A stretch of 64,000 bases of DNA from contig CBDAFS010000012.1 in the NCBI GenBank assembly GCA_965195285.1, forward strand, positions 1-64,000, in the 5' to 3' direction. The DNA comes from an uncultured Aminicenantes bacterium (GTDB lineage Bacteria > Acidobacteriota > Aminicenantia > UBA2199). How positions within the stretch are numbered: position 1 is the first letter of the stretch; every line of letters begins with the position of its first letter. Under the pieces are notes generated by a model that worked only from the letters and a program-made list of their open reading frames with translations, made no database searches and was not told where the DNA came from. The translations under genes were made by a program, and so were the position numbers. This document shows positions 42,698 to 64,000 of the stretch, in pieces.

Positions 42698-42704
42698 TTT
42701 CAAA

Positions 42705-44162: not shown

Positions 44163-44171
44163 TGGTATAAT
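44163..44171 (+). promoter_or_regulatory. Extended -10 promoter, leaderless geometry
   Basis: TGGTATAAT-6 nt-ATG(44178). Confidence 0.6.
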
Positions 44172-44177
44172 GTTCTC

Positions 44178-45512
44178 ATGAATAAAAGCAAATATTATCA
44201 GTTTATATTGGTCATCATTGCTGTTATGGGTTTATTCACCTGTGGAAAACAAACAGATTCAGGGACTACTATTAAGGTAGTGGTATTGGGATTTGACGGG
44301 GCCAGTTGGGCAACTATTGATCCGCTGATTGACAATGGAAAATTGCCTTTTCTGAAGCAATTGAAAGCGGAGTGTGCCTGGGCGAATTTCAAAACCTTCA
44401 AACCCACCAAATCCAATGTCGTATGGACCAGCATTGCCTCCGGGAAAACCATGTTAAAACACGGGATCATGGATTTTGTCTATCTGAAAAAGAAGGGGAT
44501 CAGGGTTCCCTTTTCCAAATCCAACCGTCTGACGCCCATGCTCTGGCAGATTCTGGATCTGTATCAAAAGAGAAGCATTGTGTTGAACTGGTGGGTTTCT
44601 CATCCCCCGGACAAAATCAACGGGGTCATGATATCGGATCATTTCAGAAAAATTGCCACCACCAGACCGAAATTTCTGGATGAGTACCGGTCCTCGGTTT
44701 ATCCGCCTGAATATTTTGATCGGTTAAAAAAATTCGGGGACATGAATCGGAAATACCTACAGGTTTTGAAAAAGACAGGTCTTCCTGAATATATCAGTTG
44801 GTATTACCGAAGTCAGCCCCGGGGGGATCACCAGAAAGTTCCGGTTTTAAATGTATATCCTCGCTTGATCAAATACGATGCCACCATTGAAAGTGTATCC
44901 GGTTATCTGTACCAGCGGGAAAATTTTGATTTTTTTGCCACTTATTTCCGGTTTCCGGATATCATCCAGCACTTTGTGATTGAATTGATAGAGGAAGACA
45001 TTAAAACCAGGCTGAAGGAGTTGGATTTTGATGCACCCGAATCAACGGATTTTCTCAGCCGGACCACCCGGAAGATTTCCGACCTGATGGAACCGGCCTA
45101 TCAATACATGGAGCGAATTCTCAAGGCCTATATGTCCAATCCGAAATATAAAAATGCCTATTTCTTTATCATGTCCGATCACGGTTTTTCCCTGACCCCG
45201 GAGGGATATGACCACTACCACCTGCCTGTAAAATTCGATCCGCCCGATGGGTTCCTCATCATCAGGGGGCCAACGGTAAAAAAGGGAAAAATTGAGAAGG
45301 CTTCGATTTATGACATTGCCCCGACCATTCTGAATTTATATAATCTTCCGGTCGGGGAAAACATGGACGGCCGGGTATTGCGGGAGGTTTTCAATCTGAA
45401 ACGCAAAACCCGATACCGGCTCTATAAATTGAAAAAAGAGAAAATCCTGCAGGATGAACGTTACAACCGGGAATCCCTAAAAGAACTGGAATCAATGGGT
45501 TATATCGATTGA
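44178..45512 (+). CDS. Phosphodiesterase/NPP-like AP-superfamily lipoprotein (paralog of 37075)
   Basis: Sec lipobox LFTC; GFDGA, KSNVVWTSIASG, PDIIQH, SDHGF, LESMGY. Confidence 0.87.
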   Translation: MNKSKYYQFILVIIAVMGLFTCGKQTDSGTTIKVVVLGFDGASWATIDPLIDNGKLPFLKQLKAECAWANFKTFKPTKSNVVWTSIASGKTMLKHGIMDFVYLKKKGIRVPFSKSNRLTPMLWQILDLYQKRSIVLNWWVSHPPDKINGVMISDHFRKIATTRPKFLDEYRSSVYPPEYFDRLKKFGDMNRKYLQVLKKTGLPEYISWYYRSQPRGDHQKVPVLNVYPRLIKYDATIESVSGYLYQRENFDFFATYFRFPDIIQHFVIELIEEDIKTRLKELDFDAPESTDFLSRTTRKISDLMEPAYQYMERILKAYMSNPKYKNAYFFIMSDHGFSLTPEGYDHYHLPVKFDPPDGFLIIRGPTVKKGKIEKASIYDIAPTILNLYNLPVGENMDGRVLREVFNLKRKTRYRLYKLKKEKILQDERYNRESLKELESMGYID

Positions 45513-45574
45513 TTCACCGGTGAAAATGTGTTGGGCGTCACCGGGGAATCGATTGTCGGTGGAAACCCTTCAAA

Positions 45575-45603
45575 TTGACATAAATCAGTGCATTTGGTAA
45601 CAT
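45575..45603 (+). promoter_or_regulatory. sigma70 promoter, leaderless geometry
   Basis: TTGACA-17-(TGn)TAACAT-7 nt-ATG(45611). Confidence 0.65.
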
Positions 45604-45610
45604 AGCCAGA

Positions 45611-47419
45611 ATGAAAAAATCATTTGTCGCCCTTGTTTTCATCCTGATAGCTGCGGCCTTATTACTGGTATTGATTTCCCGTCCGGACCGCAGCGGATTC
45701 CACCGGCTGGCGTTTTCAGCGCCGGGCCTGAAACCGGTTCTCCAGGAACCCGAGCTCAGCCTGGCCAGAAAAGTCAAAATGGACCGGCATATTACCGATG
45801 GCCAGGTTTTACATTTCAAGGGGAGTGGAATTCTGACCCTGTCACCGGAAATCCGGGGAAAGAAGGGGGTTTTTTTCACCTTTCAGGCAGCAGCCACTGA
45901 TTCCGGAAAAATCAGGACATCCATCTATCTGGACCGAAAGGGCAAACTGGTTAAATTGAAAACCTACCTGGGCCATTCCTATTATCACAGTTTTGTCAGA
46001 GAGATGAAATTAATGAAGCAGGACCGGTTCAGAATAGAGGTCCAGGGAAATGGAATTCTGGTGGCGAACAGGCCGGTCATATACGATATTGTTGATATAG
46101 AGAAGCGTAAATATGTTTTTGTCATAGCCCTGGATACCCTGCGCTACGATAAGGTGGGGGGCACCCGGAACGGTGTGGACCTGACCCCTCATATCAGTGA
46201 ATTCAGAAGGGATTGCTGTGAGTTTACCGAGGCCTTTGCCCAAAGCAACTGGACCCTCCCCTCATTCATGAGCTTTTTTACCGGGCAGTATGAATTCAAT
46301 CATCAAATAACCCGGGATTCCTCTTTATCAGCGGATAACCCTTTTCTGAGCAGAGACCTTTCGAAAAGGTTTTTTACGGTCAATTTTAATGCCGGTTTAT
46401 GGTTGAAGGGCAAATTCGGCTTTTCCAGGGGGTTTGACCTTTTTTCGGTTCTATCCTCTCCCAAAGACAGTCTGGGCGGAAAAGTCATGTTTGCTCAGGC
46501 CCTTGACTTTCTGAAAAGGGTTCAAGCGCCCTCTGTTTTCATGTTCCTGCATACCTATCAGATTCATTCGCCTTATGCGCCTCCGGAAAAGTTTCTCAAA
46601 CAGGTTTCCGAGCAATCCGAATATAAAAAACTGGATTCATTTTTTTATAAAAAACAATTTAAAAACGATGTGGCACCGAATCTTCGCCTGGCCATGGAAA
46701 CGCTTCATGATGCCGAAATTTTAGCTTTTGACAGTTTTTTCGGGGATTTTATCCGCAGCCTCAAGGACCTGAACATCTATGACCGGTCCATGATCGTTTT
46801 TCTATCCGATCACGGTGAAGAATTCTATGAACATCAGGGCTGGGCCCATTGCCATTCCCTGTATAATGAGGTGATTCAGGTACCGCTGTTTATCAAGTTC
46901 CCCGGTTTCCGCTTCAAAGGAAAACAGATCCGGGAAAATGTCGGGTTGATTGATGTGTTGCCCACGGTAATGGATCAGTACCGGATCAACCCGAATCCAC
47001 AGGTTGATGGATTGAGTCTGATGCCGCTTTTAAAGGGGAAGGCCTGGAACCGGGAACAATTGATGTCCTCGACATCGGTGGCCTGGCTGGTCCGGCAAAT
47101 TCCGCCGAAACTGTCCCTGCTGAGAAACCGTTTCAAGCTTATCTATAATTTTAGATTTTCCCCGGAAGACCTGGATTATTTTGCCGAATTCGGAACCCCT
47201 CCGGAAGTCGATGACATACAACTTTTTGACCTGGGCAAGGATCGGTCTGAAGTTTCGGAGCTGACCGGTAAAGAAAAAGTCCGCCAGCTGAACCATTTCA
47301 GGTCAGAACTGACCCGGATGAAAAAAACCATCACTGCGGTCATGAAGAGGAAACGACTGAAAAATGTGACCCTGAGCGATGAAGAAAAAGAAAAACTGAG
47401 ATCGTTGGGGTACTTGTAG
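45611..47419 (+). CDS. Membrane-anchored sulfatase-like protein with extra N-terminal beta domain; Thr nucleophile
   Basis: N-terminal TM; LDTLRYD, SNWTLPSFMSFFTG, HTYQIHSPY, SDHGE, LRSLGYL. Confidence 0.87.
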   Translation: MKKSFVALVFILIAAALLLVLISRPDRSGFHRLAFSAPGLKPVLQEPELSLARKVKMDRHITDGQVLHFKGSGILTLSPEIRGKKGVFFTFQAAATDSGKIRTSIYLDRKGKLVKLKTYLGHSYYHSFVREMKLMKQDRFRIEVQGNGILVANRPVIYDIVDIEKRKYVFVIALDTLRYDKVGGTRNGVDLTPHISEFRRDCCEFTEAFAQSNWTLPSFMSFFTGQYEFNHQITRDSSLSADNPFLSRDLSKRFFTVNFNAGLWLKGKFGFSRGFDLFSVLSSPKDSLGGKVMFAQALDFLKRVQAPSVFMFLHTYQIHSPYAPPEKFLKQVSEQSEYKKLDSFFYKKQFKNDVAPNLRLAMETLHDAEILAFDSFFGDFIRSLKDLNIYDRSMIVFLSDHGEEFYEHQGWAHCHSLYNEVIQVPLFIKFPGFRFKGKQIRENVGLIDVLPTVMDQYRINPNPQVDGLSLMPLLKGKAWNREQLMSSTSVAWLVRQIPPKLSLLRNRFKLIYNFRFSPEDLDYFAEFGTPPEVDDIQLFDLGKDRSEVSELTGKEKVRQLNHFRSELTRMKKTITAVMKRKRLKNVTLSDEEKEKLRSLGYL

Positions 47420-49637: not shown

Positions 49638-52106
49638 GTGAACAGCAGGCCAAAGAATCGATATCAGTCTCCTTTCACAGCCAAGTATCTCCTGATTTTT
49701 CTCATTCTCCTAGTCGCTATTTTAATCAACCGTTTCTGGTTGCTGCCCCATATCGATACCCATGTGTTCCGGGGTGTCCCCAATTTTTATACCTGGATCG
49801 TGCTGTGGAATTGTCATTGCCTGGAAACACTTGATTTCACTGATTATTGGTCCGGTAATGCCATGTATCCCTATCCCTTTGCCCTGGCCTTTTCGGAAAA
49901 CATGCTGGGGGTGACCCCCTTTGCCTTCCCCATATGGATCCTCACCCGGAATCCGGTTTTGACTGCCAATTTGCTTTCCATTCTGATGCTGTGGCTCACC
50001 GCTATCATGACTTTCTGGTTTTTGAGAAAATTAATCGGAGCCGGATGGCCGGCCCTGGCCGGGGCCTTGATTTTTTCCCTGAATCCCTGGATCCTGAAGG
50101 CTTTTTCTCTGGGAAGGTTTCACATGCTGGGCTTGATGTGGCTGCCCCTTATCCTCTACGCCAACCGGGAATTCTGGGAAAGGGGTTTGAAGCGTCATTT
50201 GTGGGTGATAGGAGGTTTCTGGCTCTGGACCTTTGCCATCAATATATATCTCGGTATTTTTCTGGGGATATTTCTGGGAATTTGGAATCTAATCTGGTTT
50301 TTCTATCAGAGGCGAAATTTCAGCAAAAGGAAGATTGTCCAGTGGGTGGTCTGTGTGTTCCTGGTCTGGCTTTTAATGGTTCCGGTATTTTTGAATTACC
50401 AGCAGGCGGCTCGCCATACCGGAATGATCAGAACCCTGGAAAACCAGGTTCAATATACCGGTCCGATCTGGAGCTGGTTTACGGTCAGTGATGAGAACTG
50501 GTTGTGGGGCCAGACCTTAAAGTTTTTGCCCACCGGGAAACGGGATGGAATCGTTGAAAACTATATGTTTCCGGGTTTTTTGGTACTGGGATTTTTTGGT
50601 TTCAGCTTTTTGATCAAAAAAATGCCCGCCTGGCTGAGCAGTTTAAGGCTGACCGGACTATGTCTTTTTATCCTATCCATGGGACCCTATGCCCTTGGCA
50701 TTCCCTGGAAAATCCCGCTTCCCTTCCAGTTGCTATGGTTTGCATACCCACCGCTTCAGGCCACCCGTAATCCCCATCGGCTATCTTTGTTTGTTATACT
50801 GATCATTGCGGTGCTGGCCGCCTATATCATGAAAAACTTTTTTAAACGCAAACCGCTGAAGGGTTTTTTCATTGGATTTATTATTCTGGGGATTTGTGTG
50901 GAATCGATGAGCCTGGTAAATCCTCAACGGGCCCTGGACCGGAACAATAAAGAATTCTATGGTCAGATAGAAGCGGACAAGCAGTCCCGTACCCTCATTG
51001 AACTTCCGGTCAATATTCACACCGATATCCGGGCCATGGTGAGTTCCTCTCATCACTGGAAGCGGCTGGTGAACGGGGTGTCCGGATTGTGGCCGCCTTT
51101 ACAATCCCAGCTGGAAACGGAAATGAGAGAATTTCCCTCCTCTCACTCCATCCGGATTTTACAGTCTCTGGAGGTAGACCGGATTGTGATTCACGAACGA
51201 TACTACGGGAAAGACCGGAGGAGATTATTAATGCGAATCCAGCAATACCCGGAAATCAGGTTGTTGAACCGGAGCGGATATTTATCTCTCTGGTCATTGA
51301 AAGGCGGAGACATTCGCCATGATCTACAGCCTTGCCAAGACCTTGGAATCTCTACACCCTCCCGATTTGTTTCCGGTACCGTGAATTTCTGCCTGGAGGT
51401 CAAACCTGCTGAAAAAGCCATGGTATTCAACCTGAAAGCGCCCTCGAGATTCAGTTTTACACCGTCGCGTTTATGGGAATTGAAAACCCGAATTCAGGGT
51501 TCCGAAATCAGGCCCTTGGCGGAAAGCTGGAGGCCGCCGGCATTATTCCACTGGTTCAACCGGCAAAAGAAAATTGAGCTGGATATATCGGCCGGCTCCC
51601 AGCGGTTGGTGGTTGATATCGATATCATGGGCGAAACACTGCGATTGTCCAAACCGGTTGAGGTGGTCGAAGTCCAGAAATCAGAATATGGACTTCCCGG
51701 TTCACTGAGGCTACCCATGGGATATCATGCCATTGCCTGGGATCAACTGGAAGTGTCTCTGGAAGCCAGTTGGGCCAACCCTAACCTGGCCCGGCTGGAT
51801 GGTTATCTGGAAGGCGTCATCACCGTTGTGAATCCCGGTCCCTATTACTGGGTATCCGGAGAACAGCAGGGGGTGGTCCTGGGAGTTCAACTGGTCGGTC
51901 AGGTCGAAACCAGGGAATCGGAATATTGGCTGCCCCATGACCTTTTTCCCGGCGATCAGGCGACATGTCGGGTCCGGATTCCGCTGCCGGACCGATATCA
52001 AGGCGTGACGGTTTTTTTAAATTGTCTGGTCAGGGGACCCGGTCCGTTCAGGAAATGGTTTCCCGAAAACAACCGGATTCAATGCTGGCGAGACCCATCC
52101 GACTGA
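49638..52106 (+). CDS. YfhO-like GT-C membrane protein with C-terminal extracytoplasmic domains
   Basis: W...W...N.MYPYP..LAFSE, ~12 TMs, R.P.R, ELP...LVNGVSG.WPP. Confidence 0.72.
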   Translation: MNSRPKNRYQSPFTAKYLLIFLILLVAILINRFWLLPHIDTHVFRGVPNFYTWIVLWNCHCLETLDFTDYWSGNAMYPYPFALAFSENMLGVTPFAFPIWILTRNPVLTANLLSILMLWLTAIMTFWFLRKLIGAGWPALAGALIFSLNPWILKAFSLGRFHMLGLMWLPLILYANREFWERGLKRHLWVIGGFWLWTFAINIYLGIFLGIFLGIWNLIWFFYQRRNFSKRKIVQWVVCVFLVWLLMVPVFLNYQQAARHTGMIRTLENQVQYTGPIWSWFTVSDENWLWGQTLKFLPTGKRDGIVENYMFPGFLVLGFFGFSFLIKKMPAWLSSLRLTGLCLFILSMGPYALGIPWKIPLPFQLLWFAYPPLQATRNPHRLSLFVILIIAVLAAYIMKNFFKRKPLKGFFIGFIILGICVESMSLVNPQRALDRNNKEFYGQIEADKQSRTLIELPVNIHTDIRAMVSSSHHWKRLVNGVSGLWPPLQSQLETEMREFPSSHSIRILQSLEVDRIVIHERYYGKDRRRLLMRIQQYPEIRLLNRSGYLSLWSLKGGDIRHDLQPCQDLGISTPSRFVSGTVNFCLEVKPAEKAMVFNLKAPSRFSFTPSRLWELKTRIQGSEIRPLAESWRPPALFHWFNRQKKIELDISAGSQRLVVDIDIMGETLRLSKPVEVVEVQKSEYGLPGSLRLPMGYHAIAWDQLEVSLEASWANPNLARLDGYLEGVITVVNPGPYYWVSGEQQGVVLGVQLVGQVETRESEYWLPHDLFPGDQATCRVRIPLPDRYQGVTVFLNCLVRGPGPFRKWFPENNRIQCWRDPSD

Positions 52107-53659: not shown

Positions 53660-54940
53660 ATGAAACGCACCATAGTAGTTGCCACCGTTCTATTTATTGC
53701 CCTGTTGATCCTGGTGTATTTTATATTCTTTCATACCGGAAATCAAAACTGGATACTGGATGATATCCAATTCAAGGCCCGGGACGGATTTGTCCTGGAT
53801 GCCTACCTGCTCCGGCCCGAAGTACCCCGGAAAAAATACCCGGCTGTGGCCTGCTTCCATCAGTTATGGGGAAACCGGGATGATTTTTTGAAACTCTTTC
53901 CCAAGCTGGCAGAAGCCGGTATCGTGGTCCTGGCTCCGAATTTTCCCAGGCAGCAGCCCACCTATGACCCCAGAAGGATCTCCGATTTGAGAAATACCCT
54001 TGATTTTCTGGAAAACATTGACTATGTGGATGGGCAAAAACTGGGGATGGTCACGGCCAGTTTTTCGGTTGAGACCGGTATGACTGCCATCAACCAGAAA
54101 CCCAATGTGATTGCCAGCGTGATGATTTCCGGACAGATTCTGCGTGAAAATTCCCGAAAGAGGCTGACCCATAATTCAAATCTGGCCATTTTTAATATTG
54201 CCAGTGTTCATGATGGCTCGCATTATCTGATCATGAAGGAATGCCTGGCCAGAAGCCTGAATCCGTTTTCCCGTTCATTCTTCATCGAAAAAAAGGAGGA
54301 TCCTTTTTCAATTCAGGCTCATGGCACCTTTGTCTTTGATGAAATTCCGGACAGTCTGGACCGGATTCAACAATTTTTCATGGATGTTTTCGGAATTTCC
54401 ATCAAAAATGAAAAATTAATCGATAAGGAGGTTTTGAAAAACACCGTTTATTTATCCTCAACCGACGGATTACCGGTAGTGGCAACCCTGAAGCTTCCCG
54501 AAAGTCCTCACCATCCTATGCCCGTAGTCATTCTGTATCCTCCCCAGTTTGAGAGTCGGATGTACTATGATAAACTGGCCGATCGGCTGGCAGAAAACGG
54601 GATTGCGGTTCTGGCTCCCAATACCAAACGAACTTGCCGTGAGCCGGTCAAGCTTCATCTCTGTGATAAGGAAATTCACGGCGCCCTTCAATATATTTTG
54701 AAAGACGGGCGGTTTGATCCCAGCCGCATTGCCCTGGTTTTTCCCTCATTCTACTTCCTGATTGCCCGGCAAATGATCGAAAACCGGGAAATTCCGGTGA
54801 AGATGGTGGTGATGATGGAGGCCGGCACCAAAAATTACGAAATTAATCCACGCAAAATAGACCATGCCGGTTATTGCTTTTATTACCTGAAAAAGCCCAG
54901 TCTGGGCCGGTTGAAATACATATTATTAAATTCATTATGA
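53660..54940 (+). CDS. Membrane-anchored protein with tandem alpha/beta-hydrolase-like repeats
   Basis: N-terminal TM; repeat 1 ARDG..LDAYL.RP..PAV..FH..LAEAGIVVLAPN; repeat 2 STDG..VATL..P..PVV..LAENGIAVLAPN. Confidence 0.72.
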   Translation: MKRTIVVATVLFIALLILVYFIFFHTGNQNWILDDIQFKARDGFVLDAYLLRPEVPRKKYPAVACFHQLWGNRDDFLKLFPKLAEAGIVVLAPNFPRQQPTYDPRRISDLRNTLDFLENIDYVDGQKLGMVTASFSVETGMTAINQKPNVIASVMISGQILRENSRKRLTHNSNLAIFNIASVHDGSHYLIMKECLARSLNPFSRSFFIEKKEDPFSIQAHGTFVFDEIPDSLDRIQQFFMDVFGISIKNEKLIDKEVLKNTVYLSSTDGLPVVATLKLPESPHHPMPVVILYPPQFESRMYYDKLADRLAENGIAVLAPNTKRTCREPVKLHLCDKEIHGALQYILKDGRFDPSRIALVFPSFYFLIARQMIENREIPVKMVVMMEAGTKNYEINPRKIDHAGYCFYYLKKPSLGRLKYILLNSL

Positions 54941-55722
54941 TGAAAATATTCGGATTGCATCGGGCCTGTATTTTGGGTTTTGTCCTGTTTTTGTTCATTC
55001 TATTTTCAGTTGCGGCGGTTCCCCGATTACCCGGGGGTGATGCTGAACCGGATCCCCGAATCGGAGCTCAGGTGTTTATACGTTCCGGGAATTATTATGT
55101 GGGAAACCCGACCGAAACAAACACTCAGTCCCACCGACTGATGGCATTCAGAGATTTTTATATAGATATCCACCCGGTGACCAATTTTCAATATGTGGAG
55201 TTTATTAACCGGAGCCGTTATCATCCACGGGGAAAGTTCAGCATTGAAGAGGCCCGAAAGAATCCCTGGCTGCCGGCCACCGGCCTGATCCATGCTGATG
55301 CCGAGGCCTTTGCCGATTTCCATCAGAAACGCCTGCCCACGGAATGGGAGTGGGAAATTGCGGCGCGTTCTCTGGAAAAGGATGTGTTGTATGCCATCGG
55401 ATCTCTGCCCACTCTGGAAACCGGTAATTTTTACCGTTATAAACAGAAGAACGGGGTCACTCCGGGTTTTTCCTACCCGCCCAATAAACTGGGAATATAC
55501 GGGATGGCCGGAAATGTGTTTGAATGGACATCCAGTTTATATCCGATCGAGAAACTCAAGGGGGCCTATTTTCAGAAATACCGCCTCATGGTTTTAAGAG
55601 GAGGTGCCTGGACCAATATTCCCCATGATGTGCGAGTGACAACCCGGACACCGTTTCCGGCCAGCAGAAGTCTGGAATGGCTGGGATTCAGGTGTGTTTC
55701 TGAGAAACCGGTCCAGCATTGA
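54937..55722 (+). CDS. FGE/SUMF1-fold protein lacking the catalytic cysteines
   Basis: FYID.HPVTN.QY, KRLPTEWEWE.AAR, GMAGNVFEW, RGGAW, GFRC; no CxxxxC after RGG; ATGA overlap with the upstream stop. Confidence 0.85.
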   Translation: MMKIFGLHRACILGFVLFLFILFSVAAVPRLPGGDAEPDPRIGAQVFIRSGNYYVGNPTETNTQSHRLMAFRDFYIDIHPVTNFQYVEFINRSRYHPRGKFSIEEARKNPWLPATGLIHADAEAFADFHQKRLPTEWEWEIAARSLEKDVLYAIGSLPTLETGNFYRYKQKNGVTPGFSYPPNKLGIYGMAGNVFEWTSSLYPIEKLKGAYFQKYRLMVLRGGAWTNIPHDVRVTTRTPFPASRSLEWLGFRCVSEKPVQH

Positions 55723-58211
55723 CAACAATGAAAAAGAACCTGGTTCAAATCATTTTGATAACTCTCATTATTTTGTTTTCATTTGGATTGCGAATTTATT
55801 CGCCCACAGCAGACTTGCCCCCTGATATTTCATTCAGCGGTAGTATCTATACCGATGAAGGCAACCAATGTCACAATTCCAGAAGCAAGGTCCTCTTTGA
55901 TGATTGGTCTCCGGATGACTGGCGTATCAGCAATTACAGCCCGGTTGTTCCGTTCATGAAGTACCTGATTTTTAAAATATTCGGGGTGGGATTGGTTCAG
56001 GAGAGGCTGGTATCCTATATTTTTGCCTTCTTCTCTTTGCTGTTGTTTTACCTGATTCTGAAATCTTATTTCAGTTTTTCCTTTACCCTTCTGGGAACAG
56101 TAGTCATGGGGCTCAATTTCTTTATGGTGATGTATAACCGAATCGGCACTTTTGAAACCCCCATGATGTTCTGGATGATTCTCAGCCTTTATTTTGTCGA
56201 AAAATTCCGGTCCAGTGAAAATCCGCTCTACCTTTCACTTTCTGCTGCCTCTGCTTTTCTGAGCTTTGTGTTTAAAAATATCGCCGCGTATTTTGTTCCG
56301 GTTCCCCTGGCAGCGGTGATCATCTGGTTTTTACTATTTAAAACACCGGGAAAGGAATCCTGGAAGAAAGGTGTCAGGCTTTTTGGTTTTGCCTTTCTGG
56401 GAGCGGCTATTGCCATAGGACTATGGGTTGTCCTTTTTTATATTCCCAACCGGGAATGGATTCTGAGTGTGCCGGGCCAGTATATTTCCAACCAGGTGTT
56501 GCCCAAAACCCTGGATCAGGCCATTCATAATTTTTACGGGTTCAACTGGAAGGAACAGTTTTACAAAATTCCGGTGGTATGGCTGTTGTCACTTTTATCC
56601 GTTCCCTATTTAATCAGAAAAGTGGTGCAGAGAAAAATTGATATAACCGGGATCGGGTTCGGAATGTTGTTTTTCTTACATACCCTGTTTTTCATGTTCA
56701 TGAATCACCGGCCTACCCGGTATTTGATCCCGGTGATCCCGGCCATGATCTTCATGTCTGTTTTGTTTTTGAAGGCCATAACCCGTTTGCCCGGTAGCAG
56801 GCGGTTTGAATATTCATTTTTTCAGAAAGCGGTTATTTTCATATCCGATACCCTCTGGCTGGGACTGGCTGCCAATTTCTGTTTTTTCCCCCTCTGGGAC
56901 CGTTACCTGAAATCCATTCAAATTCCGCCTCTCTCCATCCGTTATGTTGTTTTTTCGGCCTTATTGATCGGATTGCTGATTTTTTTGAAAAAACTCTATA
57001 TTCGATTTATGGCCGGGCGGATCCGTTTGAATTTTAAACCGGTTTCATGGCTGCTGATCATTTTGCTGACAGGCATATCCCTGGCCAGCAATCTGTCCAA
57101 TTACCTGAAATGGAATAGGGACAAGACCCATACGGTCTATCAAATATCTCATGAACTGGGAGAAAAGCTGGATAATGCATATATCGCCGGGTTGACCGCA
57201 CCGGTGGCGGTGCTTGAAAACACCCATCGGTCTCTGTTTTTGTATCCCGATTTTGTAAACTGGGATCAGAAGACATTTGAGCGGTATCCCCTGACTCATG
57301 CCTTACTGGCCAGTTTCAATCAGGAAATAAGCCATTTTTTCAGGCAATGGCCGGAAAGAATGAATCAGGCCCGGCTCCTGAAGGTCTACAATGTGAAAGA
57401 CCAATTCTTGCACTTGTATTCTTTTGTAGATCCATTCATTGTTCAGGCCAGGGAAATCCGGGGTCGGGGAATAGAACTGAGAATTCTGAATCCTTCCGAT
57501 GGCCCGGTGAAAGTCGGCATCGGAAAGATTTTCTTTTTCAATAATGCGGGTGAACGGATCGGGCCTGAGAGTCATTTTATTGAAGAGGCAAATGAGATGG
57601 TTGTATTAAATTCCGGTGAAAATGAGCTGGTTCTGGAAGATGCATTTTCAGATCAGCCAAATCCGGTATCCGTTCTTTTATTTCTGGACCTGAAGGGGTG
57701 GAAGATAAACCACCGCTACGAGGCAGAAAAGTTTCCCGGTAAAGTCGGGGAAAACATCAGAAATGTCCGGGCCTCCGGAGGTTTTACCCGGGGTTTCTTT
57801 CAGAAAAAACACCGGGCCGGCTTTCTGAGTTTCGGCCCCTTCATACCCTATTCGAAAGGCTTTTTAAAGGTTGATTTTTATTTGCAGTGTCGCCGGGTGA
57901 GGTCAAGAATCCGGCCGCTGGCCGAACTGGATATCTTTTCCTACAGTGATAAGCAGTCCCTGGATAAACGGGTATTGAAGCCCAGGGATATCCGGGATGA
58001 TGGTTTTAACCATTACCCGTTAACCGTCGCCCTTTCCGATCGGCATTTTCTGGAATTCCGGGTTTATGCCGAAAGGTTTGCAGATATTGATTTAGACTAT
58101 GTTAACGTGGTATATTATCAGGGGTATTTACTGAATATTAACCATAACAAGGGAAGTTCATTGTTGGCCAAGAGCACCCTTCAAGGAGGAATCTTCGGTG
58201 AAACAAGGTGA
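55719..58211 (+). CDS. GT-C glycosyltransferase (ArnT/PMT-like) with C-terminal carbohydrate-binding-like domain
   Basis: LR...YTDEG, R.V, FET, K, RYLIP; ~13 TMs; C-terminal YEAE...FGPFIP...LEFRV...DY beta sandwich. Confidence 0.8.
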   Translation: MTTMKKNLVQIILITLIILFSFGLRIYSPTADLPPDISFSGSIYTDEGNQCHNSRSKVLFDDWSPDDWRISNYSPVVPFMKYLIFKIFGVGLVQERLVSYIFAFFSLLLFYLILKSYFSFSFTLLGTVVMGLNFFMVMYNRIGTFETPMMFWMILSLYFVEKFRSSENPLYLSLSAASAFLSFVFKNIAAYFVPVPLAAVIIWFLLFKTPGKESWKKGVRLFGFAFLGAAIAIGLWVVLFYIPNREWILSVPGQYISNQVLPKTLDQAIHNFYGFNWKEQFYKIPVVWLLSLLSVPYLIRKVVQRKIDITGIGFGMLFFLHTLFFMFMNHRPTRYLIPVIPAMIFMSVLFLKAITRLPGSRRFEYSFFQKAVIFISDTLWLGLAANFCFFPLWDRYLKSIQIPPLSIRYVVFSALLIGLLIFLKKLYIRFMAGRIRLNFKPVSWLLIILLTGISLASNLSNYLKWNRDKTHTVYQISHELGEKLDNAYIAGLTAPVAVLENTHRSLFLYPDFVNWDQKTFERYPLTHALLASFNQEISHFFRQWPERMNQARLLKVYNVKDQFLHLYSFVDPFIVQAREIRGRGIELRILNPSDGPVKVGIGKIFFFNNAGERIGPESHFIEEANEMVVLNSGENELVLEDAFSDQPNPVSVLLFLDLKGWKINHRYEAEKFPGKVGENIRNVRASGGFTRGFFQKKHRAGFLSFGPFIPYSKGFLKVDFYLQCRRVRSRIRPLAELDIFSYSDKQSLDKRVLKPRDIRDDGFNHYPLTVALSDRHFLEFRVYAERFADIDLDYVNVVYYQGYLLNINHNKGSSLLAKSTLQGGIFGETR

Positions 58212-58935
58212 TCAAAAAAAGGTTTTAACCGATGTGCTGTTACCGGTATATAATGAGGAACATATACTGGAAAAAAGTGTGAACCGGTTGCGGGAATTTC
58301 TGTCCGCTGAATGCAAGCATTTAAACTGGATCATTTCAATAGGGGACAATGCCTCCACTGATAAAACTCTGGAGATTGCCAGAAAATTGGAAAAACAATT
58401 TTCTGATGTCCGGGTATTTCACCTCCCCCGGAAGGGTCGGGGCCGGATGGTTAAACATGCCTGGACCAGAAGCGAGGCGGATGTTTTGTCCTATATGGAT
58501 ATTGACCTGTCAACCGATCTGAAGGCATTTCCTCCCATGATCCAGGCCATTATAGATGGCTATGACATAGCCATCGGCTCACGGCAGTATAAGGGGGCGG
58601 ATGTGGATCGAAGCCTGCGTCGGGAAATCATATCCCGGGGGTATATCTGGGTATTGAAGCTTTTACTGCGTTTTCCCTTTACCGATGCCCAGTGCGGCTT
58701 TAAAGCCATCTCCAAACAGACTGTGTCAGAGTTGTTCTCCCATATTAAAGATGATGAGTGGTTTTTTGATACGGAACTGTTGCATATTGCCCACCAGGAA
58801 GGATACAAGGTAAAAGAAATTCCGGTTCGCTGGATCGAGGACCGGGATTCACGGGTTAAAATAATGAGGACTGCCTGGCTGGATATTCTGGGGGTTCTGC
58901 GTATGATAGGATATCGAAGGGGATCTTTGAAATGA
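58198..58935 (+). CDS. GT2 polyprenol-phosphate sugar synthase (Dol-P-Glc/Man synthase-like)
   Basis: LPVYNEE, DNASTDKT, GRG, YMDIDLST, GSR, DAQCGFKA, WFFDTELL; GTG start with GGAGG. Confidence 0.9.
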   Translation: MKQGDQKKVLTDVLLPVYNEEHILEKSVNRLREFLSAECKHLNWIISIGDNASTDKTLEIARKLEKQFSDVRVFHLPRKGRGRMVKHAWTRSEADVLSYMDIDLSTDLKAFPPMIQAIIDGYDIAIGSRQYKGADVDRSLRREIISRGYIWVLKLLLRFPFTDAQCGFKAISKQTVSELFSHIKDDEWFFDTELLHIAHQEGYKVKEIPVRWIEDRDSRVKIMRTAWLDILGVLRMIGYRRGSLK

Positions 58936-60302
58936 AAAAATCCATATTGATAACCGGCATCACCGGATTCGTGGGCCGCCATCTGCTCGAAAAAATGGAT
59001 TTGTCATCTTATCAGACGGTTTTTGGTTTGAGCCGGGAACCGGAAAAAATTTGTTTCCCGGATAAAGTTCCCAAAAATCTGAAAATGATCCGGGGGGATC
59101 TATTGCATCCCGAGTGCTACCGGTCGATCTTAAACCAGGTGGATACGGTGGTGCATCTGGCAGCGATAACTGGCAAGGCAGGCCGGGCTGAGTATCGAAG
59201 GGTAAATGTCCGGGCCACCCGGGAATTACTGGAAGCCTGCCAGGATTCGGGAGTGAAACATTTCTTATTGGTGAGCTCCATTGCCGTAAAATTCAAACGC
59301 CAACAGCGCTATTTTTATGCCCGTTCCAAACAGCAGGCTGAAGGTGAGGTCAAAAAGAGCGGGCTCAATTATACGATTCTGAGACCTACCATTATCCTGG
59401 GGGCCGGCTCCCCGGTTTTCAGCGGCTTTGCCCGGTTTGCCGGTTTACCGCTGGTTCCGGTATTCGGTAAAGGGGCTGTACAGATTCAACCGGTACATGT
59501 GGCTGATGTGGCCGAGGTGATCCGGGATATACTGAATAAGTCGCTCTTCAAGGGGGACACTATTGAACTGGGGGGGAACCAGACAGTTACTATCAAGGAT
59601 TTCATGAAATTGCTGTCCTCCCGCTGCCAGACCGGCCCGGCCCGCTTCCTGCATGTTCCTCTGGGCCCTATGGTTTTTTTCCTGTTTCTGGCAGAACCCC
59701 TGCTGTACCCGATCCTGCCCTTTACTATGGGGCAGCTGGCCACTTTTCGCAATGATGGGATTGCTGATCCCCATGACGCGGTTGGCAGATTGTCTTCCGG
59801 GTTCCTGGGAATCGAGCGGATGATCGATGACAGTTTTCAGGCTCAGAAGGTTGAACTCCGGAAAAAGGATCTGGAAAAAGAATGCCGGGTTTTCTGTCAA
59901 TACCTGCTCGGGCAAAAGCCCGGTCCCTATGTGATGAAAAAATATTTGGATGTCCATCAAAAAATCGACATGAAGGCCAAAAACAAATTCGATCGGATAT
60001 TGGCCCGCCTGGGGGCCAGGAACCGGATTCTGGTCCGGGCCTGTGATTCGTATTCCCGTTTTTTCTATCCTTGCTCCCTGCTTCGAAAGAAGTTGGTTTA
60101 TCTGTTGGCGATTCTGGAAACCGCCTCTCCCCACGCCCAGATTATCGATCGATCGGATAACCAGGGAAAATTCATGTTGTTGTTTATCATGGGATTGAAG
60201 GGAATGGGGCTTGTCTTTTTTCTGATTGTATCGTTTCCGATTTTATTTCCCCTTCAGGTTGTCCTAAAATCCAAACAGACGGGGGAATTGAACCATGGTT
60301 AA
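58932..60302 (+). CDS. SDR epimerase/reductase fused to a ~150-aa C-terminal membrane-associated domain
   Basis: ITGITGFVG, VSS, YARSK, LRP, QPVHV.DVA; extra domain ECRVFCQYL...LLRKKL..LLAILE plus a terminal TM. Confidence 0.82.
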   Translation: MKKSILITGITGFVGRHLLEKMDLSSYQTVFGLSREPEKICFPDKVPKNLKMIRGDLLHPECYRSILNQVDTVVHLAAITGKAGRAEYRRVNVRATRELLEACQDSGVKHFLLVSSIAVKFKRQQRYFYARSKQQAEGEVKKSGLNYTILRPTIILGAGSPVFSGFARFAGLPLVPVFGKGAVQIQPVHVADVAEVIRDILNKSLFKGDTIELGGNQTVTIKDFMKLLSSRCQTGPARFLHVPLGPMVFFLFLAEPLLYPILPFTMGQLATFRNDGIADPHDAVGRLSSGFLGIERMIDDSFQAQKVELRKKDLEKECRVFCQYLLGQKPGPYVMKKYLDVHQKIDMKAKNKFDRILARLGARNRILVRACDSYSRFFYPCSLLRKKLVYLLAILETASPHAQIIDRSDNQGKFMLLFIMGLKGMGLVFFLIVSFPILFPLQVVLKSKQTGELNHG

Positions 60303-61911
60303 AATAACGGTTGTGGGTTCCGGGGCCAGTGGTGTCCATTTTGCGCTTTCCGCCCTTAAAAAGGGACATCAGGTTGAAATGCTGGATGTGGGGTATTCAG
60401 CTCCCCCCAATGTGAACCCGGAGTTTTCTTTCATTGATATCAAATCCAAACTGGAGGACCCGGTTGCCTATTTTTTAGGTGAAAACTATGAGACCGTAGT
60501 TTCCCCCGATTTTGACAATGAGATCTACGAATTCCCTCCCAATAAGATGTATATATTTAAAGTCCCCCCGGGTTTCAAATCCGACAGCAGGGATTTTGAT
60601 CCGCTGTTTTCTTTTGCCCGGGGCGGGCTGGCCGAGGCCTGGACCGGGGGAAGCTATCCATTTAATGATCAAGATCTGGCCCTCTTTCCCTTTGACTATG
60701 AAACCCTGAAGCCCTATTACGAGGAGATTGCCGAGCGGATTGGTCTGATTGGAGACAGGGATGATATTTCCCGTTTTTTTCCTTGGCATGAGAACCTTCT
60801 CCCTCCCCTGGAACTGGATGAGAATTCAAAAATAATTCTGGAAAAATACCAAAAACGGAGAGAACTACTCAACCGGAAAATGGGTTTTTATTTGGGCAGG
60901 TCCAGGATTGCCACCCTGAGCGTTGATAAGGGGGATCGCAAGGCCTGTGACTATTCGGGAAGGTGTCTCTGGGGATGTCCCAGTGATTCCCTGTATGTTC
61001 CCTCATTGACCCTGGCCGATTGCCAGAAATACGAACATTTCAGCTATAAACCCGGTGTGCTGGTCGAACATTTTAAGGTCAATTCCCGGAAGCGGATCAC
61101 ACACCTGGTTTTCCAGGATCTGGCCCTTCAGAAAAGAGGGGAAATAAAAGTGGATAACCTGGTGTTGGCCGCCGGCACCCTCTCATCATCAAAAATTTTC
61201 CTGGATTCCGTTTACCGGCAAACCGGAAAAATACTGAAACTGGAAGGTCTGATGGACAACCGTCAAATCCTGGTTCCTTTTTTGAACCTCAGTTTAATGG
61301 GAAAATCATATAACCCGGAGTCCTATGTGTATCACCAACTGGCCGTGGGTTTCGAGTGTGAAAAGACTTCCAATTACATTCACGGTCAGATCACCACCCT
61401 GAAAACGGCCTTGATTCACCCGGTGACCCTGCAGATGCCGCTGGACTTTAAAACGGCAACCTACCTGACCCGGAATCTGCATTCGGCACTGGGGGTCATC
61501 AACCTGAATTTCTGCGATACCCGGCGAGCGGATAACCAGCTCACCATTGAGCCGGATTCAACCGGCAAGCAAGACCAGACTACCCTGAAAATTACCTATC
61601 AATCGATTCCCGACGAAAAAACCATCATTTCTTCAGCCACCAAGCGAGTGATGAAATTCCTGAGAAAACTGGGGTCGATTGCACCACCCATGATGATCCA
61701 ATCCCGGCCCATGGGGGCCAGTGTTCACTATTCGGGGACCCTGCCTATGAGCACTACCGATGAACCACTGGGTGTCACACCGGATTGCCGGAGCCGGGAT
61801 TTTGATAACCTGTTCTTTGTTGACGGAACCGTTTTTCCGTTTTTACCGGCAAAGAACCTGACCTTTACCATGATGGCCAATGCGGCCCGAGTTGCAGATA
61901 AAGTCTTTTAA
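60295..61911 (+). CDS. GMC-family FAD oxidoreductase
   Basis: VVGSGASG, GGLAEAW, CDYSGRCLWGCP, LAAGTL, HYSGT, NLFFVDG, NLTFTMMANA.RVA. Confidence 0.88.
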   Translation: MVKITVVGSGASGVHFALSALKKGHQVEMLDVGYSAPPNVNPEFSFIDIKSKLEDPVAYFLGENYETVVSPDFDNEIYEFPPNKMYIFKVPPGFKSDSRDFDPLFSFARGGLAEAWTGGSYPFNDQDLALFPFDYETLKPYYEEIAERIGLIGDRDDISRFFPWHENLLPPLELDENSKIILEKYQKRRELLNRKMGFYLGRSRIATLSVDKGDRKACDYSGRCLWGCPSDSLYVPSLTLADCQKYEHFSYKPGVLVEHFKVNSRKRITHLVFQDLALQKRGEIKVDNLVLAAGTLSSSKIFLDSVYRQTGKILKLEGLMDNRQILVPFLNLSLMGKSYNPESYVYHQLAVGFECEKTSNYIHGQITTLKTALIHPVTLQMPLDFKTATYLTRNLHSALGVINLNFCDTRRADNQLTIEPDSTGKQDQTTLKITYQSIPDEKTIISSATKRVMKFLRKLGSIAPPMMIQSRPMGASVHYSGTLPMSTTDEPLGVTPDCRSRDFDNLFFVDGTVFPFLPAKNLTFTMMANAARVADKVF

Positions 61912-61925
61912 TGAACGAGGAGAAT

Positions 61926-63518
61926 ATGAAGAAAATACTTTTTGGTTTACTGGCTCTCTTTCTGGTACTGAACCTGTTTCCGGAAATTGACAAAAAAAAC
62001 AATCAGAAAAAAACGTTAACATTTGAAAAAGCAGTGGCCTGCCGGGCAGTTCTTGAAATCAGGTCACTGGTCAGCGGATCTGTTTCCGAGGTGCTGGCCG
62101 CCAAGGGGGACCGAGTCACAACCGGCCAAATATTACTCCAGTTTGATGTCTCGGGGCTGGATGAGGAAATCCGGACAGCAGAGCAGAGTCTGGAAATATG
62201 GGAAAAAACACTCTTCAATCGTGAACATTGGAAGGTTCGCAGCCAGCCAGCCGAAAACCAGGCCAAAAGAAAAATAGAGGAGTTTAAAACCGATATTAAA
62301 AAGAAAAAACAGCAGAAATCCCGGCAGCGGATCCATTCGCTGATTGAGGGAAGCGTATTGGATATTGTTGATGAAAAAATGCCGGTGGAAGAGGACCAGG
62401 TAGTGGCCCGGATCGGGGATGATTCGGTGCTCAAAATTGAATTAACCCCGAATGACTCCAACCGGAATGTTCTGGCAGAAATTCAGGATGGAGAAAAAAT
62501 ATCTCTGACCTTTAAGAAAGTCAACCTGGCCTGTTCCGGGGAGATCAAAAAAGTGAATGATCGAATGGTCATTCTTATTCCCAATGACAAATACCTGCTG
62601 AAACCGGGAATGATGGCCAAATTCCAGTTCACTTATGATATCCAACCGGAGATCCAAAAGGTACTGAAACAACCCCAGGTCCGGCCGAAAGATCTTCAGT
62701 ATATAAAAGAGAAAAAGATCGGATTTGAAATTTCAGCCGGGATGTCATGGTCGGATCCCGGCGAATATTACGACCGGGCTTCAGGGATTGACAACCTGAT
62801 GGATCAGTACATCCAAAACTACGGCCTGGAATATACGATCAGCGGTAAATTCGGAAAGAATATTATTTATTTTCCGGTCAATGTCCTGGTCAATTACCGG
62901 ATTTCGGAAAAATGGTATCTGAAAGCCGGCCTTGAGTTCGGTTATGGCAATCAATCCAGCCAGAAAACCTACCATTTAAACTGGACCACCACAACCGAGG
63001 ATCACCGTTACAATCTCTCTTCAAAATTAACCTATTTCATGCCCTTTGTGGGAGCGGAAAGACGGTTCGGAAAATTTGGTGTTTATGCAAATGTGGGATT
63101 GAATTTGCTCAGCTTATCCCACCAGAAAAATCTGGAAATATCAGAATCCACTTACTGGTACAGGCAGGATGAAGACATCTCGGCCACTGGCACCGGTATC
63201 GGAATACTGGTGGGAGGAAAATACAATTTTCTCATTGGTAAAAAAACGAACCTGATTCTAAAGCTGGAATTATGTTATTTGAAAGTGAGCAACCTGTCCG
63301 GGAGCCGGGACGCCTCTATTACAAACTCGCTCGGAGAATCCCTGTCTGAATCCATTCAGGGGACCATTTACAGTTTTGAGATAAATCCCTATGACCTGGG
63401 CTGGTTTTATACCTGGGAAATGTTTGGTTCGGTTCCCGGTGAGTCCTGGATTCGAAATGTGAGCGAGATGGCCATCAATATGTCCAGTATTCGGCTGATG
63501 CTGGGAATTAAATTTTAG
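61926..63518 (+). CDS. Periplasmic adaptor (HlyD/MFP-like) domain fused to a C-terminal outer-membrane beta-barrel
   Basis: GAGGAG RBS, signal peptide; lipoyl half (SLVSGSV..V....GDRV..GQILL), helical hairpin, lipoyl half (SLIEGSV), LKPGM; then amphipathic strands ending LMLGIKF. Confidence 0.7.
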   Translation: MKKILFGLLALFLVLNLFPEIDKKNNQKKTLTFEKAVACRAVLEIRSLVSGSVSEVLAAKGDRVTTGQILLQFDVSGLDEEIRTAEQSLEIWEKTLFNREHWKVRSQPAENQAKRKIEEFKTDIKKKKQQKSRQRIHSLIEGSVLDIVDEKMPVEEDQVVARIGDDSVLKIELTPNDSNRNVLAEIQDGEKISLTFKKVNLACSGEIKKVNDRMVILIPNDKYLLKPGMMAKFQFTYDIQPEIQKVLKQPQVRPKDLQYIKEKKIGFEISAGMSWSDPGEYYDRASGIDNLMDQYIQNYGLEYTISGKFGKNIIYFPVNVLVNYRISEKWYLKAGLEFGYGNQSSQKTYHLNWTTTTEDHRYNLSSKLTYFMPFVGAERRFGKFGVYANVGLNLLSLSHQKNLEISESTYWYRQDEDISATGTGIGILVGGKYNFLIGKKTNLILKLELCYLKVSNLSGSRDASITNSLGESLSESIQGTIYSFEINPYDLGWFYTWEMFGSVPGESWIRNVSEMAINMSSIRLMLGIKF

Positions 63519-63537
63519 AGGCGAGTATATTCTGTAC

Positions 63538-63563
63538 TGAAATGGAAGTATGAAATGGAAGTA
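63538..63563 (+). repeat. 13-bp tandem duplication over the start of the last gene
   Basis: TGAAATGGAAGTA twice. Confidence 0.8.
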
Positions 63564-64000
63564 AAGAACAACGTCAGGCTGTTGATCCTATTGCTGGTTC
63601 TGGGAGTGTCGATGTGCCTGTTGATCGCCCCGGGATGCCGGCCGGACCGCTCCGTCCTGCCCAATGTGGTGGTCATTGTCATTGATACCCTGAGGGCAGA
63701 TCATCTTCCCTTCTATGGTTATCCCAAAAACACGGCCCCTTTTTTGGCTAAACTGGCCTCTCAGGGTGTTCTCTTTGAAAAAGCCTATGCGACTTCTTCC
63801 CTGACCGCCCCTTCCACCGCTTCGTTGTTTACTTCTTTTTATCCGTTTCAACACGGTGTGGTCCTGAATATTGGCGGAACCATCAAACTTCGGAAAATGG
63901 CACCCAAACTGAAGGTGAAATTAAACAAAATACCTCCGGAGATCACCACTCTGGGAGAAATATTCAAACAGGCCGGGTACAGCACATACGGGGTTTCGGA
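63555..64000 (+). CDS. Sulfatase-like lipoprotein, 5' part (runs off the window; not in the ORF track); paralog of 42785
   Basis: MEVKNNVRLLILLLVLGVSMCLLIAPGC lipobox; VIDTLRADHLPFYGY; SSLTAPSTASLFTSFYPFQHGV; open to the end. Confidence 0.88.
   Translation, partial: MEVKNNVRLLILLLVLGVSMCLLIAPGCRPDRSVLPNVVVIVIDTLRADHLPFYGYPKNTAPFLAKLASQGVLFEKAYATSSLTAPSTASLFTSFYPFQHGVVLNIGGTIKLRKMAPKLKVKLNKIPPEITTLGEIFKQAGYSTYGVS

Follow-up and report, generated by a model that had tools for sequence, protein, structure and literature searches.

A periplasmic-adaptor-like module fused to an outer-membrane-type beta-barrel at a predicted envelope-glycosylation locus of an uncultured Aminicenantes bacterium

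The 64,000-nt stretch of DNA analysed here (the window) comes from an uncultured Aminicenantes bacterium and comprises positions 1 to 64,000 of the forward strand of contig CBDAFS010000012.1 (GenBank assembly GCA_965195285.1). Close to its end, at positions 61926..63518 of the plus strand (stop codon included; limits taken from the list of open reading frames (ORFs), homologues and contigs), lies a gene for a 530-aa protein (P0001) in which a module of the membrane fusion protein (MFP) or periplasmic adaptor type is followed by a beta-barrel of outer-membrane (OM) type. It is confirmed that one polypeptide joins these two parts, and the architecture, together with anchoring in the OM, is in our judgement very probable. 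What is new here, on the evidence of sequence comparisons, is that the barrel is an operon member that is usually free-standing and that the adaptor belongs to a metagenomic clade recognised by a motif at the tip of its helical hairpin. The role of the gene in the cell envelope is probably one not described before. The explanation that we favour, an OM-anchored, inward-pointing adaptor that would act as a scaffold for an envelope-glycosylation locus, is put forward as a whole with a little less than even confidence.

A single frame encodes both modules

An earlier note on this DNA, drawn up from the letters alone, described one continuous ORF at 61926-63518 and named the junction at ~62630-62720 as the place where two separate genes might have been joined. 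Homologues keep the same fused frame. A word-indexed search returned eight full-length relatives of 530-557 aa (93, 89, 69, 69, 70, 53, 46 and 44% identity), and an exhaustive search added P0013 (561 aa) and, at a greater distance, the fusions P0014, P0016 and P0017 (~615 aa), in which a membrane-proximal (MP) domain is present. Public contigs were also compared over 61800-63600. Three of the runs (X2, X5 and X10) belong to three studies other than the possible source of the window, and the public runs in which window DNA occurs carry the labels marine sediment, sediment and cold-seep metagenome. A 51,992-bp contig from X2 spans the whole of 61800-63600 with six substitutions; its sole indel, 13 bp deleted at 63538, falls in the intergenic spacer before the next gene, which encodes a sulfatase-fold protein. 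A contig of 1,331 bp from X5 spans 62134-63463 gap-free, and one of 165 bp from X10 covers 62588-62752 and is identical to the window. The junction 62630-62720 is crossed by contigs of all three studies with no indel and no joint. An assembly or frameshift artefact joining two genes might be suggested by the existence of free-standing barrels and of one adaptor-only fragment (P0024, 235 aa). However, the fused frame recurs in homologues down to 44% identity and in distant forms at 31-35%, and the contigs that cross the junction refute such an artefact, the probability of which we regard as negligible.

The open frame (61911-63518, plus strand) gives 535 aa from an upstream ATG and 530 aa from the ATG at 61926. 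The latter is the likely start codon, since a Shine-Dalgarno-like GAGGAG (61917..61922, plus strand) lies 3 nt ahead of it, the closest homologues begin with MKK and have 530 aa, as does the product of this start, and the alternative ATG at 61911, which overlaps the stop codon of the upstream GMC gene, is not kept in another sample's contig (run X5, G>A at 61913). The N-terminus MKKILFGLLALFLVLNLF is hydrophobic and signal-like, and we read residues 1-20 (61926..61985, plus strand) as a signal sequence without lipobox. Inspection of residues 1-38 found no Cys; with none before residue 39, the protein is not a lipoprotein. In the alignment of 12 sequences, relatives have AXA-like sites (IHA/T, LNA/I, GAG/Q), and no clear AXA cleavage site is present in the signal of the target, the protein of the window.

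An RNA library (run X20) contained one 169-nt contig, at 62849-63017 within the barrel, which is too little for a claim of transcription and may be DNA carry-over.

The adaptor module

Residues 28-238 (62007..62639, plus strand) form the MFP/periplasmic-adaptor-like module, as delimited by profile matches, an AlphaFold2 (AF2) model, Foldseek and alignment. The full-length AF2 model, built from the 12-sequence alignment, has a mean pLDDT of 78. According to DSSP it has strands in residues 28-73, then an antiparallel hairpin of two 26-residue helices, then strands up to residue 238. This alpha-helical hairpin (residues 76-132, with helices 76-101 and 107-132; 62151..62321, plus strand) splits a lipoyl (barrel-sandwich) domain, the strands of which occupy residues 51-73 and continue beyond the second helix (DSSP, profiles and Foldseek). 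A beta-barrel domain follows the lipoyl domain, with strands at 159-238 and an HlyD_3 match at 149-212.

Structural comparison of the model with the PDB placed it among adaptors. The top Foldseek matches were all of this kind (MexA, MacA, ZneB, Spr0693, EmrA and AcrA, at about 4e-11 to 3e-9), the best of them being MexA 1vf7 (3.6e-11), with MacA represented by 3fpp and ZneB by 3lnn, and the structural alignments span ~230-260 columns of MexA and MacA. At sequence level the TIGR01730 (RND_mfp) match is weak (1.7e-8 over residues 26-238; 33.8 bits against a curated cut-off of 94.9). HlyD_D23 matches residues 41-231 with 17.4 bits (cut-off 30), HlyD_3 scores 17.6 bits (cut-off 22.2), and Biotin_lipoyl_2 reaches 8.6e-5, under the Pfam cut-off. 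A sequence search of the PDB returned just lipoyl-domain and weak MacA/MexA-chimera matches, and in the ESM Atlas the whole protein pointed, weakly (0.77), to a cluster of RND adaptors.

The MP domain is missing. The target and its near relatives are gapped at columns ~419-497 of an alignment of 23 sequences (A3), and at this gap P0014, P0016, P0017, P0157, P0058 and the downstream paralogue described below have 70-90 residues of typical MP-domain sequence. The module is made up of three of the four canonical adaptor domains (lipoyl, hairpin and beta-barrel). The complete MFP-like module of the earlier note is thus borne out in its lipoyl, hairpin and beta parts by AF2 and Foldseek, and falls short of completeness in the MP domain. 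A complex prediction for four copies of residues 28-240 with alignment A3 (score 0.00, without controls) speaks neither for nor against oligomerisation.

The outer-membrane barrel

A flexible linker rich in Lys, Pro and Gln (residues 239-262; 62640..62711, plus strand) leads from the adaptor to the barrel. Its length differs among relatives, and residues 239-260 have a pLDDT below 50 in the full AF2 model. The 8-stranded OM beta-barrel domain that follows (residues 263-530; 62712..63515, plus strand) was delimited by model, superposition and profiles, and includes a helix at 279-299 and long strand extensions. When residues 255-530 were modelled separately on an alignment of 40 sequences, the barrel was obtained with a pLDDT of 96.2 and a pTM of 0.88. 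Foldseek returned OM barrels only (OmpW, NalP, EspP, OmpT, OprG, OpcA and TtoA), at TM-scores of only 0.3-0.39, so that there is no close solved relative. A structural scan matched the OprF N-domain (Z 17.0, rmsd 1.8 A, 130 of 135 residues), PagL and the Legionella Dot/Icm porin III (Z 16.9 each), a designed 8-strand transmembrane (TM) barrel (Z 16.7, 1.7 A, 116 of 120 residues), NspA (16.6), OmpA (16.2), OmpW (15.8) and TtoA (15.7). The nearly full overlap with 8-stranded barrels, at less than 2 A, points to an 8-stranded core. In DSSP the domain falls into 13 strand segments; the first strand is followed by a helix of 21 residues, there are strands 23-28 residues long, and we tentatively read the model as a tall barrel with a large crown.

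The protein ends in a beta-signal-like strand, SIRLMLGIKF (63486..63515, plus strand), the final Phe of which (F530) is invariant in 12 of 12 sequences and kept in 95% of 40 barrel relatives. In these respects the model agrees with the earlier description of the C-terminal half as a barrel of about eight strands with a terminal Phe; the half does fold as a TM barrel when modelled. The Pfam family OMP_b-brl scores 18-20.5 bits on the target against a gathering cut-off of 28.7, and it matches 23 of the 40 barrel relatives at E <= 0.01 (best 1.3e-10). NCBIfam profiles gave only sub-threshold matches on the 40 barrels (TDE1717 family, OMP_myx_plus, PorP and OmpX), and papers that mention TDE1717 offered no lead. 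The presumed loops of the barrel are about as conserved as its strands in the 40 relatives; one conserved loop, at 457-478, is rich in Ser and Thr. On these profile matches the barrel is an unnamed ~270-aa subfamily of OMP_b-brl type. A PagL-like hydrolase role was considered in view of the Z-score of 16.9 and dropped: the catalytic residues of PagL are His and Ser, and no His occurs among the conserved positions.

A clade of adaptors with a common hairpin tip

Alignments of the adaptor half revealed a motif in the hairpin, W92-x3-L96-x2-R99-x2-W102-K103-x-R105-S-x2-A109-E110-x2-A113 (62199..62264, plus strand). W92, R105 and E110 are invariant in alignment A3 and in a further alignment of 48 sequences (A4), and L96, R99, W102, K103, A109 and A113 are nearly invariant in both. 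The conserved residues sit at or around the hairpin tip, helix 1 ending at residue 101 and helix 2 starting at 107. Expressed as W-x3-[LIVY]-x2-[RQ]-x2-W-[KR]-x-R, which matches the target from residue 92, the motif defines a clade. It occurs in 53 of 144 representative matches, 47 of which are at least 450 aa long; by a crude rule 45 of these 47 long proteins have a beta-signal-like C-terminus, and 32 end in Phe. Pfam searches of 48 motif proteins found HlyD_3 in 38, HlyD_D23 and Biotin_lipoyl_2 in 36 each, and OMP_b-brl in 33, and one member, P0042, lies over the Pfam cut-offs for all four families. By these criteria of sequence the adaptor is a member of an uncharacterised clade that is nearly always fused C-terminally to an OM barrel. 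The architecture is, moreover, not rare on the same counts, with at least 47 clusters at 50% identity having the same tip motif and a C-terminal barrel signal. Database names of clade members include 'biotin/lipoyl-binding protein [Candidatus Aminicenantes bacterium]', 'membrane fusion protein' and, once, 'AcrA.../outer membrane protein W'.

PMC3391258 describes the RLS motif (RxxxLxxxxxxS/T) as the TolC-binding interface of MacA, AcrA, MexA and HlyD. None of the 22 family members tested in the hairpin region, target included, has this motif.

Other members of the clade carry a different barrel. In the small-barrel members P0157, P0058, P0042 and P0062, adaptor modules with the same tip motif as the target and with an MP domain, often preceded by an extra ~100-aa N-terminal domain, are followed by a Lys-rich linker and a ~170-aa OM barrel. 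The target differs from them in having no MP domain, a larger and different barrel, and an operon setting of GT-C, GT2, SDR and GMC genes. Modules may also be repeated before the barrel, with two in P0042 and P0064 and three in P0062. The double-module genes (958-998 aa) of the genomes G085, G156 and G297 each adjoin an ORF of 852-873 aa, which in G085 encodes a secreted PD40 + Peptidase_S9 protein (Pfam); no such neighbour was seen at the target locus.

Two side observations concern these relatives. The loci of the double-module genes, L030 (8746-14262), L031 (6236-11978) and L032 (8320-13911), also contain a gene for a 574-aa protein ending in HIGIKY, which is beta-signal-like, and an asparagine-synthase-like gene. 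Furthermore, P0042, P0058, P0061, P0062, P0064 and P0157 have the sequence K-K-C-P-[RG]-[KR]-V, with a single Cys, ahead of each module; the target is without it.

The barrel and its operon

The fusion gene closes a compact six-gene row on the plus strand. The five genes before it (54874-61911), assigned by Pfam, have starts and stops that overlap or abut. They encode an FGE-sulfatase-domain protein (54874-55722), an 830-aa GT-C glycosyltransferase of the PMT_2 family (55719-58211), a GT2 enzyme (58198-58935), a NAD epimerase/dehydratase (SDR) with a hydrophobic C-terminal membrane tail (58932-60302) and a GMC oxidoreductase of the cytoplasmic FAD type (60295-61911), in that order. Synteny was examined by tblastn of the operon proteins against all related loci obtained. 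GMC lies directly 5' of the barrel in seven of the eight loci with enough upstream DNA (L004, L005, L007, L010, L027, L034 and L036); three others (L035, L037 and L028) are cut too near the barrel to show it. L004 is a 94% relative, L005 stands at 53% and L007 at 31-39%, and the GT2, SDR and GMC trio has 44-75% identity across loci. GT2 and SDR precede GMC in every locus whose contig reaches that far, and GT-C was found in L004, L007 and L027. Pfam confirmed the order FGE-sulfatase/PMT_2/GT2/Epimerase/GMC in L007, at 31% identity. As far as gene order tells, the barrel gene stands last, as a conserved feature, in an FGE-like/GT-C/GT2/SDR/GMC operon, in keeping with the link to glycan machinery that the earlier note had drawn, and we consider it probable that the gene belongs to a glycosylation operon.

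In its gene content the operon resembles systems of the polyprenyl-phosphate-sugar type, which would make a sugar lipid, epimerise it via a keto intermediate and transfer the sugar on the periplasmic side. Its logic may presumably be likened to that of DprE1/DprE2-type and ArnC/ArnT systems, and we know of no description of a polyprenyl-phosphate-sugar epimerisation line that uses a GMC enzyme. There are no transporter genes in the operon or in seven syntenic loci. In positions 1-80000 of the contig (C12) no OEP, no RND (over cut-off) and no FtsX-type permease was found, MFS not being searched; the TolC-family genes of the genome (about seven frames), its RND pumps and its FtsX-type permeases are all on other contigs. 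The earlier statement that the window holds neither a pump nor a TolC partner thus holds for these families.

The barrel occurs in this operon with and without an adaptor. In G085 the same slot is taken by a 296-aa barrel that has its own signal peptide and no adaptor, and in G156, a relative of G085, by a 621-aa fusion. Among 61 proteins with a barrel match of more than 200 residues, 41 are free-standing, 12 have a motif-bearing adaptor and 8 have other N-terminal extensions. A quick maximum-likelihood tree of 60 barrels (unrooted, the fragment P0060 left out) placed the fused forms in two well-supported clades, with the barrel-only form of G085 nested beside P0016 inside one of them. Most simply read, this tree has the free barrel as the ancestral form, with one or two gains of the adaptor and at least one loss. 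Since the barrel occupies this place without an adaptor in a close relative, it is the barrel, rather than the adaptor, that is linked to the operon. In both G156 (L007 11680-17590) and G085 (L027 12823-18567), genes for TamB (PF04357) and for an Omp85/BamA protein with POTRA repeats are found ~2 kb downstream and make up the OM-biogenesis locus; this TamB/BamA neighbourhood of the operon is not in the genome of the window. Of 401 sampled genomes of the phylum, 20 gave a match at 1e-5. Among them are 8 of the 11 genomes of the window's family and 3 further members of the class; another 8 matches, elsewhere, are weak, cover the N-terminal part only and resemble ordinary adaptors.

A proposed mechanism and its alternatives

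We propose that the protein would be exported by Sec, that its signal would be cleaved, and that BAM would then insert the C-terminal barrel in the OM. Known adaptor structures have the two chain ends of the module opposite the hairpin. Here the signal is followed after ~8 residues by the first strand, and the barrel begins ~24 residues beyond the last strand. Provided that the barrel is in the OM, the position of the module ends and the shortness of these linkers imply that the hairpin points inward and that the signal must be cleaved. The module would hang ~10 nm below the OM, as estimated from domain sizes, with its tip toward the peptidoglycan and the inner membrane, inverted with respect to canonical adaptors. 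Such an OM-anchored, inverted adaptor had been suggested in the earlier note, and the barrel model and the placement of both module ends beside a short linker speak for it. Modules might pack side by side like canonical adaptors, chains of one, two and three modules all dividing six; this packing is suggested only, by the existence of such chains and by the precedent of a natural fused dimeric adaptor.

The invariant Trp, Lys, Arg and Glu residues of the tip point to a conserved partner, which the W/K/R tip would engage on the inner side. The fusion would in this way tie the OM barrel to the inner-membrane GT-C machinery, and the barrel might be the receiver, the acceptor or the enzyme for the glycolipid or glycan product of the operon, with the fusion serving as a scaffold rather than a duct. 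Barrels of eight strands normally serve as anchors, small enzymes or devices for small or hydrophobic molecules, not as ducts, and for this reason we favour a scaffold or coupler over a conduit. On this general knowledge and on the 8-stranded fold matches a conduit across the OM is unlikely, and the trans-periplasmic conduit proposed in the earlier note finds little favour here. The mechanism of an inverted scaffold or coupler is itself tentative, with a somewhat less than even chance of being right. Since the adaptor is optional on the operon barrel, its tie to glycosylation is weaker than that of the barrel.

A number of observations weigh against the scaffold and against the evidence on which it builds. 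All HlyD, MFP and OMP profile matches of the target lie under curated cut-offs, and without a clear signal-peptidase site its retention in the inner membrane is conceivable. The count of eight strands was inferred from superposition, and 10 transmembrane strands are conceivable. The tip motif is degenerate in P0008, which has 46% identity to the target. The adaptor is dispensable for the operon, being absent from G085 and from most barrel relatives, and the link to glycosylation may be incidental. Moreover, tblastn gave no GMC match in the 757 bp upstream of the barrel in L033 and no GT-C match in the 1.8 kb upstream of GT2 in L034. Note that the synteny loci come from few genera and that L004 represents nearly the same species as the window, so that they do not amount to eight independent observations.

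The main rival to the scaffold is a strut or tether, in which the barrel anchors a rigid ~10-nm rod and the Trp/Lys/Arg tip binds the peptidoglycan or the surface of the inner membrane, holding the spacing between OM and wall. The protein would then correspond in function to Lpp or to OmpM-type tethers built of a barrel and a stalk, and would owe its place in the operon to the barrel half only. The tip motif is kept in at least 47 clusters with different barrels and neighbours, which suggests a universal envelope partner. The gain and loss of the adaptor on the operon barrel, the lack of a pump close by and the position of the relatives' locus next to TamB and BamA also favour a strut. However, profile scans revealed no peptidoglycan-binding domain or motif, and MFP modules are not, to our knowledge, known to bind the cell wall; we consider the strut improbable, though it deserves to be kept in mind. 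A non-canonical export conduit is a good deal less probable still. Here six OM-anchored adaptors would form a funnel that meets, tip to tip, a pump of the inner membrane or another ring of adaptors and replaces the alpha-tunnel of TolC, taking the product of the operon to or through the OM. Canonical adaptors do form hexameric funnels, as PMC4446572 and PMC8277102 describe, chains of one, two and three modules fit a six-fold ring, and the closest folds include OmpW, which is of the lateral-opening type. Nevertheless, an 8-stranded barrel, as indicated by the matches to OprF-N, OmpA and NspA, has no duct-sized pore, the RLS motif is absent, neither the operon nor the seven syntenic loci contain a transporter gene, and the genome has its roughly seven TolC-family genes, with RND pumps, elsewhere.

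We give very little credit to an ordinary efflux adaptor that is anchored in the inner membrane by an uncleaved N-terminal helix and has a soluble or mispredicted C-terminal half. Adaptors of the MacA, HlyD and EmrA types do use an uncleaved N-terminal helix, according to PMC13328181, and the target is without a clear signal-peptidase site. However, the barrel model is very confident and has only membrane barrels as top matches, the terminal Phe forms a beta-signal, free-standing relatives have signals of their own, and no pump or TolC gene is adjacent. The linkers of ~8 and ~24 residues would also be too few to span the periplasm if both ends were anchored. Anchoring in both membranes, by an uncleaved N-terminal helix and the OM barrel at once, was dropped on geometry alone.

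The scaffold could be extended to a general statement, namely that the clade is a distinct, hitherto undescribed class of inverted adaptors, anchored in the OM by a BAM-inserted barrel and with a tip code of their own, which would assemble as 6x1, 3x2 or 2x3 modules into rings or struts extending from the OM to a conserved partner on the inner side. Here they would couple an OM barrel to a GT-C line using an epimerised polyprenyl-phosphate sugar and so form an assembly for glycosylation or glycolipid delivery across the envelope, without pump or TolC. In this full form the proposal is doubtful.

Comparison with known systems

The adaptors of tripartite pumps (MexA, AcrA, MacA, ZneB and EmrA) share with the target the split lipoyl domain, the hairpin and the six-stranded beta-barrel domain that follows. 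They differ in their anchor, which is an N-terminal lipid or transmembrane segment in the inner membrane instead of a C-terminal OM barrel, in their docking motif, which is RLS instead of the invariant W/R/W-K/R/E tip of the target, and in their gene neighbours, which are transporters or outer-membrane factors (OMFs) instead of glycosylation and sulfatase-fold genes. The MP domain is not universal in adaptors, as EmrA is also without it in the account given by PMC4446572. The same source, in the portion consulted, describes DSY0927 of Desulfitobacterium hafniense as a natural fused dimeric adaptor that supports trimer-of-dimer assemblies, and does not describe it as fused to a barrel. Tandem modules of this kind, two or three in number, occur in the relatives of the target, whereas the target itself has a single module.

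Small OM barrels (OmpA/OprF-N, OmpX/NspA, OmpW/OprG, PagL and TtoA) resemble the C-terminal half in the core, which superposes with Z 15.7-17.0, and in the terminal aromatic beta-signal. They have 150-200 aa, whereas the barrel described here has ~270 aa, a 21-residue helix and very long strands or extra segments; unlike them, it has a fixed place at the end of a glycosylation operon. Loci for sugar polymers provide another comparison. In PgaA, BcsC, PelB and AlgK/AlgE a periplasmic scaffold is joined to an OM barrel, the scaffolds being TPR and the barrels pore-forming with 16-18 strands. Alg44 has an MFP-like periplasmic domain within a glycan machine and is anchored in the inner membrane. 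There is no synthase-type operon at the present locus.

The earlier note had not recognised this architecture from characterised proteins. We likewise found no description of a fusion between an adaptor and an OM barrel in the openly searchable full-text literature or in adaptor reviews, and in the consulted parts of those reviews inner-membrane anchoring is the only kind described. If the scaffold is correct, adaptors have been put to a second use, their fold serving as an OM-borne, pump-free scaffold with its own tip in place of the TolC-docking motif. The present locus is the most testable setting of the clade, given its fixed place in a compact six-gene envelope-glycosylation operon, the natural variants with and without adaptor in sister genera and the paralogous fusion two genes away. 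An unnamed ~270-aa barrel family tied to a GT2/SDR/GMC/GT-C cassette also bears on envelope decoration in little-known diderm phyla, as in the Aminicenantes of marine sediment and cold seeps.

Other features of the locus

The paralogous fusion lies beyond the window, two genes downstream on contig C12, as a 687-aa frame at ~64893-66956 (plus strand; L003 3894-5957) with a start at ~64977. It probably begins with MRKINL, and has a clear AYA/Q signal site and the same tip motif as the target. Its extra ~100-aa N-terminal domain, for which there was nothing in Pfam and no usable match in the ESM Atlas, is followed by a spacer rich in Pro and Glu, an adaptor with all four domains and, last, an OMP_b-brl barrel of ~170 aa. 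L004 and L005 have the two fusions paired in the same way.

Between the two fusions, a gene for a sulfatase-fold, lipoprotein-like protein (plus strand) starts at 63555 and runs off the window at 64000; on the contig it continues to ~64886 (443 aa; L003 2556-3887). It has a lipoprotein-like signal, LLIAPGC, and the sequence T-A-P-S-T at the formylglycine-motif site, which we take to be the place of the sulfatase motif C/S-x-P-x-R. If the residues at this site are a guide, the protein is probably a phospho-transferase or hydrolase with a Thr nucleophile rather than a substrate for the FGE-like gene of the operon. Elsewhere in the window, two ORFs in which Pfam recognised no family (822 aa, 49638-52106, and 352 aa, 41681-42739) lie near a group of four sulfatase/phosphodiesterase-family genes that are clustered with a second PMT_2 GT-C (37075-47419 and 39223-41649, minus strand).

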